Source of the DNA: Chloroflexota bacterium
GTDB taxonomy: Bacteria > Chloroflexota > UBA11872
Length of the DNA: 64,000 bases
Reading direction: 5' to 3'
NCBI GenBank assembly: GCA_965220075.1
Contig: OZ244806.1
Coordinates: forward strand, 519,009-583,008
Each line of letters begins with the position of its first letter. Position 1 is the stretch's first letter. Below, piece after piece: positions 16,547 through 38,834 of this stretch. The position numbers were made by a program, and so were the translations under genes. The notes below the pieces were generated by a model. That model ran no database searches and was not told the origin of the DNA. It saw nothing but the letters and a program-made list of their open reading frames with translations.

Positions 16547-17581
16547 GTGGAACCGGCGGCCGTGAACCTGCCCGACGGCAAACTGCCCGCCGGCATGCTG
16601 CGGGCTTTCCTAGCCTCGTTTCCCGCCCCGCACGAGTCCGTGCTGGTAGGCGGGGCGGTGGGCGAGGACGCCGCCGTGATCGACCTGGGCGGGCCGGAGC
16701 TGCTGGTCGCCACGACCGACCCGATTACCTTCGCCGGCGCTGACGTGGGGCGTTATCTGCTGGCCGTAAACGGCAACGACCTGGCCACCACCGGCGCCCT
16801 CCCGCGCTGGCTGCTGGCCACCGTCCTGCTGCCCTCGGGAGTGTCGCCCCGGGAGGCCGCGCCCGTTCTCGAGAGCCTTCGCGCGGCCTGCTCGCAGGCG
16901 CGTGTCGATCTCGTAGGCGGTCACACCGAGGTGACGCCCGGCGTAGCGCGCACGATTGTCGTCGGCTGTCTGCTGGGGACCGTGGCCCGGGACCGGCTTA
17001 TCAGCACCGCGGGCGCGCGCGTGGGGGATGCCCTGCTTCTCACGGCCGGCGTCGCCATCGAGGGCACCGCAATCCTGGCCACCGAGCACGCGCCCGCATT
17101 GCGAGCCGCGGGTCTGGCCGCCGCGGATATCGAGCGCGCGGCCGGCTGGCTGGACCAGCCCGGCATATCGGTGCTGCCCGCCGCTCGCGCGCTGCACTCC
17201 ACCGGCGCGGTTCACGCTCTGCACGATCCCACCGAGGGCGGGCTGGCGACGGCCCTGCATGAGCTCGCCGAGGCGGCCGGAGTTGGGCTGGAGGTCCGGC
17301 GCGACGCCGTGCCGGTGCTGCCCGAGTGCGAGCGCATCTGCGCGGCGCTCGGGCTCGACCCGTTGGGACTGCTGGCCTCGGGCGCCCTGTTGGCCGCACT
17401 GGACCCGGCCGAGGCGCCGTCCGCCCTCCAGCGCCTCGATCAGGCCGGGATCGCGGCCGCCGTTATCGGTCGCATCGTGCCCCGCCGCCAGGACCTCACG
17501 GCTCTGGAACGCGGCGGGCGCGCGCCGCTTCCCGTCTTCGATCGCGACGAGCTGGCCCGGTTCCTTGAAACGCGCGGCTAG
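16547..17581 (+). CDS. AIR synthase-related protein (PurM-like superfamily, HypE-like paralogue)
   Basis: GEDAAVIDLGG...LVATTDPITFAGADVGRYLLAVNGNDLATTGALPRWLL...VDLVGGHTEV are PurM-like N-terminal motifs. There is no HypE C-terminal PRIC motif and no SelD Cys/Sec loop. Confidence 0.55.
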   Translation: MEPAAVNLPDGKLPAGMLRAFLASFPAPHESVLVGGAVGEDAAVIDLGGPELLVATTDPITFAGADVGRYLLAVNGNDLATTGALPRWLLATVLLPSGVSPREAAPVLESLRAACSQARVDLVGGHTEVTPGVARTIVVGCLLGTVARDRLISTAGARVGDALLLTAGVAIEGTAILATEHAPALRAAGLAAADIERAAGWLDQPGISVLPAARALHSTGAVHALHDPTEGGLATALHELAEAAGVGLEVRRDAVPVLPECERICAALGLDPLGLLASGALLAALDPAEAPSALQRLDQAGIAAAVIGRIVPRRQDLTALERGGRAPLPVFDRDELARFLETRG

Positions 17582-36840: not shown

Positions 36841-37422
36841 GTGGCGGCGGTTCCCACCGATACGCTCTACGGTCTGGCCGCCAGCATCGCGCTTCCGCAT
36901 GCCGTGGCGCGCGTGCTGCAAATCAAGGGTCGCGCGGCCGCGCGCGGTATGCCGGTGCTGCTGGCCTCGACCGAGCAGGCCGCCCATGTGGGTGAGGCGC
37001 CGCGCTACTTTGCGCAGCTCGGCGCCGCCTTCTGGCCGGGAGGGCTCACGCTGGTGATCAGGGCCTTGCCGGGAGTGGACCGCGGCGTTCAGGACGGCCG
37101 CGGCACGGTGGCCGTGCGCGTGCCCGGCATGACCGTCACCCGCGAGCTCGCGCGGCTGGTCGGCGCTCCGCTCACGGGCACCAGCGCCAACCCCAGCGCA
37201 CAGCCTCCGCCGGCATCCGCGCAGGAAGCGCGCGCCTCCCTGGGCGACAGCGTGGACTTCGTTCTCGACGGCGGCAGCGTGGGCGGAACGCCCTCGACCA
37301 TCATCGATCTGACCACCGAGCCCGTCCGCCTCATTCGCGCCGGTGCGGTGCCGATTCAAGAGCTCCGGCGGATCGTGCCCGTGATCGACGCCAGCCCCGC
37401 TGAGGACGCCGCCGGCAAATGA
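36841..37422 (+). CDS. tsaC: L-threonylcarbamoyladenylate synthase (TsaC/YrdC/Sua5 family)
   Basis: VAAVPTDTLYGLAAS...TSANPSAQ...IIDLT. The N-terminus probably extends upstream (LSTQLERCAAVIARGG) to a non-ATG start near 36793. Confidence 0.7.
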   Translation: MAAVPTDTLYGLAASIALPHAVARVLQIKGRAAARGMPVLLASTEQAAHVGEAPRYFAQLGAAFWPGGLTLVIRALPGVDRGVQDGRGTVAVRVPGMTVTRELARLVGAPLTGTSANPSAQPPPASAQEARASLGDSVDFVLDGGSVGGTPSTIIDLTTEPVRLIRAGAVPIQELRRIVPVIDASPAEDAAGK

Positions 37423-37784
37423 GGAGCTCGTCAGTCGAGCTGGTCGGCGAGTTCGAGCGCGCCGAGACCGGCTTCCTGCGGGACTCGTTCGACCATTGCC
37501 GCATCGAGCTCCTCGCGCGTTCCAAGCTGGACCCCGCCATCGCTCTGCTCCGCTGGTCGCCGCGGGTCGCGGGCAGCGACCAGCGCGTGACCGACCGCCG
37601 CCGCGTGCCGCCGGCCGCCTACTACGTGCTGGTCCCGGCGCACCGTGAGTTCGAGCTCACGCCGGTGCGCTCGCAACGCGAGCTCGATCAGCGCTATTCA
37701 GGTCACTTCGACGAGGGCTTGCTGCCGGAAACTCAACCAGGCCGCGGATGCCTTCTCCGATCCCTCTTCTGGCCTTGGTTCTGA
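37419..37784 (+). CDS. Hypothetical protein (121 aa), translationally coupled to tsaC
   Basis: Its ATG overlaps the tsaC stop (ATGA). No recognisable motif. Confidence 0.3.
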   Translation: MRSSSVELVGEFERAETGFLRDSFDHCRIELLARSKLDPAIALLRWSPRVAGSDQRVTDRRRVPPAAYYVLVPAHREFELTPVRSQRELDQRYSGHFDEGLLPETQPGRGCLLRSLFWPWF

Positions 37785-37880: not shown

Positions 37881-38339
37881 TCAGCTGAGAAGGCGCAGCG
37901 CCTCTTCAGGCGTCAGGCGGCCTATGTTCGTGGTGCTGTAGACCGAGGACATCACGCGGTGCTCCGCGTCCAGAACGAACCCGGTGGCTTGGAAGGCGCG
38001 TTGCTCCTCATACATATAAGCGCCTAGCCGATCCGGCGCGGACGGGTATTCGAGCTCGCAGACCAGCGGCACGTCCAGACGGTGCGCGGCGGCGAACGCC
38101 GCCGTGTCCGCCAGCGAGTCCGTGGAAAGCGCGACCACCTGCGCGCCGATCGCCTCGAAAGCGTCCAGCAGGTAGTTGTAGGCCGCCAACTGGCGGCGGC
38201 AATGGCTTCACCAATGGCCGCGGTAGCAGATCACCACGGCCGGCTTGGGTTCGAGGTCCGCGGGGATCGTTATCACCGATCCATCTGCGCGCCGACCCGT
38301 GATAGCCGGAAACGAATCGCCGGGAACTAGCTGTCCCAT
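37881..38339 (-). CDS. Peroxiredoxin-like (AhpC/TSA-redoxin fold) protein with in-frame TGA in a U-x-x-C motif; candidate selenoprotein
   Basis: Manual minus-strand translation from ATG 38339: MGQLVPGDSFPAITGRRADGSVITIPADLEPKPAVVICYRGHW-TGA(38210..38208)-SHCRRQLAAYNYLLDAFEAIGAQVVALSTDSLADTAAF...LVCELEYP...GRLTPEEALRLLS. The frame is continuous with the listed 102-aa ORF. Its fold layout matches AhpC/TSA (beta-hairpin, VV.FYP-like strand, active site, ...GISTDS...). Confidence 0.6.
38182..38197 (-). promoter_or_regulatory. Hairpin gccgcc-aguu-ggcggc beginning 11 nt after the in-frame UGA; SECIS-like candidate
   Basis: A perfect 6-bp GC stem with a 4-nt loop containing G and U. The spacing equals the canonical 11-nt spacing of bacterial SECIS elements. 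Confidence 0.4.
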
Positions 38340-38486
38340 CGCGCCGCCGCCTTTCTCCCGACTCCCCGCGCCCCACGATCCTGAGCGGCGGGGCGTGACC
38401 GGAAAGTACTTTTCTGTATACGCGGGTTCGTTTGTCAGAATTGCCTACCCTATGACGGTTTGGATTTTCGTCCAAGGAGATTGTGC

Positions 38487-38834
38487 ATGGCAACCCGACC
38501 CCAGCCGACGATCGTTGGCTACCTCAAGCCCGTATGCGGATGGAGCGGCGGCGTCCGGGCGGTGCTGGACAAGTACGGACTGGATTACCAGGACAAGGAC
38601 ATCATCAACAACCGCGCGAACTATGCCGAGATGGTGCGCAAGAGCGGGCAGCCGCTCTCGCCCTGCGTGGTCGTGGACGGGCGCATGCTGGCCGACGTGA
38701 GCGGCGAGGAAGTCGAGGCCTGGCTGGCGGACAAGGGCTACATCGAGAGAAACAACCTGCCCACGCCGGTGCCGATCGACCAGGCATGCGCGGATGAAGC
38801 GTCGACGGTGACGGTCTCCTTCGAGGAGGCATAA
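38487..38834 (+). CDS. Glutaredoxin-family protein with a C-G-W-S (monothiol-type) active site
   Basis: IVGYLKPVCGWSGGVRAVLDKYGLDYQDKDI...GQPLSPCVVVDGRML has the glutaredoxin fold layout. AAGGAG lies 8 nt upstream of ATG 38487. The listed ORF starts earlier at a TTG. Confidence 0.65.
   Translation: MATRPQPTIVGYLKPVCGWSGGVRAVLDKYGLDYQDKDIINNRANYAEMVRKSGQPLSPCVVVDGRMLADVSGEEVEAWLADKGYIERNNLPTPVPIDQACADEASTVTVSFEEA

Follow-up and report, generated by a model that had tools for sequence, protein, structure and literature searches.

The 64-kb stretch of DNA analysed here (the window) encodes on its minus strand a small peroxiredoxin-like protein whose reading frame is crossed by one UGA, and the question raised by this locus is whether that codon ends translation or is read as selenocysteine (Sec). 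The gene (37881..38339, minus strand; 152 codons plus stop) runs in one frame from an ATG at 38339..38337 to a final TGA at 37883..37881, and its sole internal stop is the TGA at 38210..38208, which in translation interrupts the peptide ...PAVVICYRGHW-*-SHCRRQLAAY.... The first-pass annotation of the window had described this frame with its single TGA and had proposed AhpC/TSA homology on either side of it, and both descriptions held up. With U replaced by C, the 152-aa product gave a Pfam AhpC-TSA match that covers aa 6-129 and includes the TGA position (E 4.9e-17; 62.5 bits, cut-off 26), as well as a weaker match to Redoxin; coding conservation was found on both flanks, with homologues conserved over residues 1-152. 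No NCBIfam model reached its cut-off for this product, and neither a signal peptide nor a membrane anchor was apparent in the 152-aa sequence. The conserved TGA (38208..38210, minus strand) is predicted to encode Sec at residue 44 (U44) in the motif W-U-S-H-C. Its partner in this UxxC, Cys47, is encoded by TGC at 38199..38201 (minus strand) and was placed by alignment to the PrxQ structure 5epf and to the WCGHC of PDI.

One genome per GTDB species was scanned for homologues, which gave at least 80 loci. Among the matches listed, the Sec codon is TGA in 67 of 80 loci, TGC or TGT in 10 and TAA in 3. The TGA loci listed come from Chloroflexota, Gemmatimonadota, many Gammaproteobacteria/Pseudomonadales, Nitrospinae, Alphaproteobacteria and one metagenome-assembled genome (MAG) labelled Tectimicrobiota, and each contains exactly one in-frame stop; the TGC/TGT loci listed are from Ktedonobacteria, one Chloroflexia, Actinoallomurus and two Gemmatimonadota. 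The TGA had been assigned to the first Cys of a CxxC motif, and this is where Cys homologues align, including P0004 (YRGSWCPYC), P0007 (YRGHWCSYC) and a Ktedonobacter protein (YRGHWCPYC). Homologues with Cys at the UGA position comprise, among the matches listed, P0004, P0007-P0009 and the ten TGC/TGT loci. The second residue of the motif, C47, is invariant in 83 of 83 family sequences, a set chosen by a motif that includes C47. In metagenome homologues (L001, L003 and L004) the N-terminal 43 aa are conserved and the TGA is present. The first-pass annotation had also raised the chance that the codon is a misread TGC or TGT; four independent assemblies of the window's lineage (L005-L008), identical at the site, all read TGA. 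Within the window TGA is the commonest stop, terminating 25 of the 47 long coding-like ORFs; it is therefore not reassigned genome-wide, and any reading of the codon at 38210..38208 must be local. Another 13 in-frame TGA candidates with a coding-like GC profile occur in the window, none of them with a redox motif.

Downstream of the UGA, a GC hairpin that we take as the core of a bacterial SECIS element (bSECIS) occupies nt +11 to +26 (38182..38197, minus strand), with the 5' arm GCCGCC (38197..38192), an AGUU loop (38191..38188), the 3' arm GGCGGC (38187..38182) and a folding energy of about -13 kcal/mol. The coordinates agree with the earlier claim that the hairpin begins 11 nt after the UGA: the gap is 10 nt and the stem starts at the 11th nucleotide. 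In the published bSECIS model (PMC13188914), the loop has 3-9 nt with a G among its first two bases, the stem has 4-16 bp, the apical loop lies 16-37 nt from the UGA and the MFE is at most -7.5 kcal/mol. The window hairpin lies within every one of these limits, having an apical loop of 4 nt, an upper stem of 6 bp, a G at loop position 2 followed by U, a UGA-to-loop distance of 16 nt and an MFE of about -13 kcal/mol. Rfam holds no family for this element. Compared with dinucleotide shuffles, the window hairpin by itself was no better than chance (z ~0) in its 68% GC sequence; single-sequence folding is uninformative as a significance test in such GC-rich sequence, and significance was therefore judged by comparison with homologues only.

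A gap-free alignment (A4) of 58 distinct TGA-containing sequences was used for this comparison. In the family helix, nt +11 to +16 pair with nt +22 to +27 around a five-base loop, mostly AGUUG or UGUUA, and standard pairs fill 93.4% of the cells in columns 29-34/40-45, against 41-55% in registers in which the 3' arm was slid by 1 or 3 columns. None of 500 shuffles matched the observed pairing or covariation score. The pair 30-44 is C-G in 28 of the 58 sequences, G-C in 16 and U-A in 9. Column 30 is the silent third base of the Arg48 codon and column 44 the second base of codon 53, so that CGG occurs with GCC (Ala), CGC with GGC (Gly) and CGU with GAC (Asp). Such coupling between a silent site and an amino-acid site is difficult to account for unless the RNA structure is under selection. 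The loop bases G, U and U are at least 90% conserved across the 58 sequences, and the Leu51 codon is UUG, which accounts for 9% of the Leu codons in the window. Among the ten Cys-codon homologues listed, the hairpin cells are paired in 50% of cases and the residues encoded there are R-Q-Q-L-[MIL]-D. The SECIS-like spacing and shape noticed at first inspection are thus borne out by the published constraints and by covariation across the family. The window hairpin is the family element with its 3' side displaced by one base through the use of GCG, not GCC, for Ala52, and after the shift it has six G-C pairs and an AGUU tetraloop compared with the family pentaloop. Residue 52 (Ala/Val/Gly) likewise tracks the opposite stem base (A4 columns 28-45; 38198..38181 in the window, minus strand). 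Residues 52-53 are a clear case of RNA structure dictating protein sequence. The Prx-like 1 family, to which we assign this gene below, in this respect illustrates plainly how a coding-region RNA element constrains a protein, residue 53 following a silent base five codons upstream.

Three near-identical Chloroflexota MAG chromosomes (L032-L034, differing by 1-3 nt) carry TAA in place of TGA at the Sec codon (L032:6130-6132, and the same position in the other two); their ORF is otherwise intact and their hairpin is weakened to 4 bp. Their nearest relatives, at 97% and 83% aa identity, have TGA (L094:203-205 and L093:41-43), which makes the TAA one recent G-to-A change. A metagenome scan for relatives of the TAA lineage returned nothing close, and the TGA relatives came from a protein search and contig look-ups. 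Most simply, the TAA would mark an incipient pseudogene. Natural recoding of UAA to Sec has been reported elsewhere, according to a passage of PMC10778597 that cites Mukai 2016, and for L032-L034 it seems less likely than a recent mutation. In L094, a short-read contig of the lineage closest to the TAA lineage, 14 nt are missing between two AGTTCCCG repeats near the start codon (L094:90-110), either through a frameshift or as an assembly artefact.

Both the ORF list of the window and public gene calls split the gene into a 43-aa and a 102-aa piece, the latter starting at a TTG (38187..38189, minus strand) that lies within the hairpin loop. Automatic truncation to 102 aa had been predicted for this gene, and the nearest database proteins, P0001 (99% identical), P0002 (65%) and P0003 (53%), are each 102-aa fragments of this kind. 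The same in-frame TGA, behind a conserved N-terminal stretch of 43 aa, is present in each of the contigs that encode them, which derive from marine BATS, Lake Tanganyika and long-read MAGs. Truncated representatives begin with L/M-A-D-F-Q and similar sequences, many of them at the loop UUG. The C-terminal fragment matches 108 representatives (P0010-P0117) in a 50%-identity library of 1.84 billion proteins, and 70 of them are no longer than 125 aa. Mis-annotation is therefore systematic: public protein sets keep this gene and most of the Prx-like 1 family as fragments of 100-110 aa without the active site. As a result, redox capacity and selenium use are under-counted in marine, sponge-associated and freshwater Chloroflexota, Gemmatimonadota and Gammaproteobacteria.

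The machinery for Sec insertion was searched for in the window and in related loci. ARAGORN detected no tRNA in the 64-kb window and no tRNA-Sec in the window or in 60 loci, Rfam models gave no tRNA-Sec in the window, and neither the window nor the related loci, about 1 Mb in all, gave any selA, selB, selD or tRNA-Sec. When E. coli SelA, SelB and SelD were compared with the window and all loci by tblastn, the single match was an AIR-synthase-family ORF (16547..17581, plus strand; 344 aa). This ORF scored 128 bits against HypE (cut-off 251.6) and 90.7 bits against SelD (cut-off 125), and was also below the cut-off for ThiL. It was rejected as a SelD candidate, being below the NCBIfam cut-offs and without the N-terminal Cys/Sec-Gly-x-Lys, with a TAA just upstream. 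Reports of tRNA-Sec in Chloroflexi (PMC5389517) make the Sec trait plausible for this genome by analogy.

A family with these features has been described. The selenoproteome of the Global Ocean Sampling (GOS) data includes 'Prx-like 1' (pfam00578, UxxC) with 225 selenoprotein sequences, and UxxU is the feature of a distinct Prx-like 2 family (Zhang & Gladyshev 2008, PMC2398784). Prx-like 1, which belongs to the Sargasso Sea selenoproteome as well as to that of GOS, is also listed as 'Prx-like thiol:disulfide oxidoreductase' (PF00578, UxxC; PMC1794560, PMC13188914), which a 2026 review grades as 'predicted with high confidence'. The string YRGHWU occurs in at least 24 reads under '#Prx-like 1' (PMC2398784 supplement file 3), for example in FYRGHWUPYCRRLLAGYE. 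The read with this peptide, JCVI_READ_1161201, shares 35% identity with the window protein (E 4e-22), and the identical peptide is found in gammaproteobacterial loci of our genome scan. The window protein thus combines pfam00578 and UxxC with similarity to catalogued members, and since sequences with the same motif were catalogued as Prx-like 1 in 2008, the window gene is, as judged from sequence, a new Chloroflexota (U-S-H-C) member of the known, predicted Prx-like 1 family.

Conservation of the TGA, the covarying hairpin and the Cys homologues together constitute comparative evidence that the UGA at 38210..38208 is very probably decoded as Sec with the help of a functional SECIS. The TGA could instead be a recent nonsense mutation in a pseudogene, or an assembly error for TGC or TGT, with no single protein being made; a single base change turns a Cys codon into TGA, and the TAA of L032-L034 indicates that the Sec codon can take a stop-to-stop change. 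Such an origin is very hard to reconcile with the 58 distinct sequences, drawn from several phyla, that share the position of the TGA and have exactly one in-frame stop and both halves conserved, with the agreement of four independent assemblies against an assembly error, or with a covarying hairpin that the TGA forms have and the Cys forms lack. We give it almost no probability and regard it as effectively refuted by conservation. It is just as hard to credit that the locus holds two separate small genes, for a 43-aa peptide and for a 102-aa protein from TTG 38189, as gene callers predict in many genomes: a single Pfam domain extends over the two pieces, in the Cys homologues the protein is continuous, and the 102-aa piece alone would be without the entire active site and strands beta1-beta3. 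Some members, moreover, have CUC or CUG instead of the TTG 'start', which owes its conservation to its place in the SECIS loop.

The UGA might also be recoded or read through with a residue other than Sec, by an opal tRNA-Cys together with a SelB-like factor, a route that has been proposed for certain bacteria, or by near-cognate insertion of Trp or Cys promoted by the hairpin. The failure to find Sec machinery in the 64-kb window or in related loci would fit such a reading. We consider it improbable, since the hairpin has the position, the size and the G-U loop of a bSECIS, Prx-like 1 is catalogued among the selenoproteins in ocean data, Sec and Cys typically replace each other in just this way, as UxxC for CxxC (PMC1794560), and Chloroflexi have been reported with tRNA-Sec. 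Decoding as Sec therefore remains the reading that we adopt.

If U44 is Sec, what would the protein do? The motif WUSHC aligns with the WCGHC of PDI, with U44 at the first Cys, and YRGHWUSHC aligns with YPAAMTPGC of the PrxQ structure 5epf, with U44 at the Thr of TxxC and C47 at the peroxidatic Cys, an arrangement that describes a Trx/PDI-type UxxC on a Prx scaffold. U had been expected to align with either the peroxidatic or the redox Cys of homologues; it does correspond to the first Cys of CxxC, but in the 5epf alignment it is not at the position of the peroxidatic Cys. In this one pairwise HMMER alignment, the positions of the Prx Pro, Thr and Arg hold R40, U44 and A118 and only C47 is kept, so that the canonical Prx signature Pro-x3-Thr/Ser-x2-Cys plus Arg is absent. 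In an AF2 model made for P0007, a Cys homologue (YRGHWCSYC, pLDDT 82), helix 50-68 begins with the CxxC, and Foldseek matched this model about equally well to BCP/PrxQ peroxiredoxins (TM 0.71-0.78 against BCP/Prx structures) and to ResA oxidoreductases (E 4e-10 to 8e-9). These sequence and model data would best be explained by a cytoplasmic redox protein of 152 aa whose thioredoxin fold is of the peroxiredoxin/ResA type.

Whether such a selenoprotein acts as a peroxidase, with Sec44 or Cys47 attacking hydroperoxides as in Prx or GPx, and not as a thiol-disulfide oxidoreductase, is a separate matter. The Pfam AhpC-TSA match, the nearness of the fold to BCP/PrxQ and the alignment of C47 with the peroxidatic Cys all speak for a peroxidase, as does the C-terminal 'IGRL..EALRLL', which we take to resemble the conserved 'GR' motif of peroxiredoxins. 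On the other side stand the R40, U44 and A118 found in that single pairwise alignment with 5epf, the W-[C/U]-x-x-C motif, which is of the Trx/PDI/ResA type, and the ResA structures, which match about as well as the Prx structures. With three of the four canonical Prx catalytic residues replaced, peroxidase activity is uncertain, and these changes make us lean towards disulfide exchange; a peroxidase is a possibility that we rate as rather doubtful.

For the thiol-disulfide oxidoreductase, the sequence pattern suggests the following course. Ribosomes would not terminate at the UGA at 38210..38208; the mRNA from +11 to +26 nt would fold into the GC hairpin with its G-U-containing apical loop, a minimal bacterial SECIS, to which SelB would bind with its Sec-tRNA(Sec) and so bring selenocysteine into the A site. 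In the finished protein, the chemistry most likely follows the UxxC cycle in its usual form. Sec44, placed at the N-terminal end of helix alpha1, would be the attacking nucleophile, its oxidised substrate would be a disulfide or possibly a peroxide, and Cys47 would resolve the intermediate to give an intramolecular Sec44-Cys47 selenenylsulfide, which a thiol partner would then reduce. Judging by synteny, the likeliest partner in the Chloroflexota clade would be the CGWS glutaredoxin (Grx)-fold protein encoded next to the selenoprotein.

This neighbour (38487..38834, plus strand; 115 aa, KPVCGWS) matches Pfam Glutaredoxin at 6e-10 and falls below all NCBIfam cut-offs. It is divergent from the selenoprotein gene across an intergenic region of 147 bp (38340..38486), which contains the purine-rich GGGAGAAAGG 10-19 nt upstream of the selenoprotein ATG. 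One sigma-70-like match, a consensus match only, lies on the minus strand at 38493..38464. In every close Chloroflexota locus (L001-L031 and L035) the Grx-like gene lies next to the selenoprotein gene and is transcribed away from it, at 63-86% aa identity. No conserved neighbours were found outside Chloroflexota, and the pairing with the Grx-like gene is confined to the Chloroflexota clade. The MAG contig labelled Candidatus Tectimicrobiota (L012, JAKZSW010000072.1) carries a gene pair of the Chloroflexota type, 61% and 79% identical in aa to the two proteins of the window, which suggests mis-binning or horizontal transfer. On the other side of the selenoprotein gene, a 121-aa ORF (37419..37784, plus strand) is convergent with it; this ORF is a called gene in related contigs and has no Pfam match.

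The conserved synteny makes the Grx-like protein a candidate redox partner. We offer, tentatively, the further idea that the U-S-H-C selenoprotein and the monothiol-type C-G-W-S Grx-fold protein form a dedicated selenium-dependent redox relay, in which the Grx resolves or reduces the selenenylsulfide, and that the minimal 16-nt SECIS of this clade is among the smallest natural SelB-binding elements. If the relay is real, the pairing would be one that is undescribed for Prx-like 1 proteins, in a clade whose minimal SECIS can be seen to determine which amino acids stand at positions 52 and 53.

The locus is of a kind already known, and nothing known of selenocysteine biology is altered by it; how it resembles and departs from known systems can be set out as follows. 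With other Prx-like 1 proteins it shares the Pfam family, the UxxC and the signature FYRGHW-U-x-x-C-R-R-x-L. The Chloroflexota clade differs from them in having U-S-H-C where they have U-P-Y/F-C ('HWUS' had no match among the GOS supplement reads listed) and in its conserved Grx-like neighbour, and the window SECIS differs by the one-base register shift that produces a tetraloop. Compared with SECIS elements of the E. coli fdhF type and the bSECISearch consensus, the window hairpin is likewise a coding-region stem-loop just past the UGA, with a small loop in which G is followed by U. Its loop lies 16 nt from the UGA, inside the 16-37 nt range and at the lower limit of the allowed spacing; the window element is much shorter, with a 6-bp stem and neither a lower stem nor a bulged U evident. 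Sec peroxiredoxins (TxxU) have in common with the window protein the AhpC/TSA fold, an in-frame UGA and a coding-region SECIS, but in them Sec replaces the peroxidatic Cys, whereas in the window protein Sec stands three residues earlier, at the Thr position, the Cys is kept, and the Prx Pro and Arg positions are changed. The SelL-related family (NF040769) also combines a Prx-like fold with a Sec redox motif, but the window protein, at 20.4 bits against a cut-off of 120, is not a member. ResA/TlpA proteins and PDI (W-C-x-x-C) share the W-[C/U]-x-x-C at the N-terminus of helix alpha1. Unlike ResA/TlpA, the window protein has no apparent signal peptide or anchor and carries Sec for Cys, and in sequence it resembles ResA weakly, scoring 18 bits in the NCBIfam ResA model, for which the cut-off is 170.
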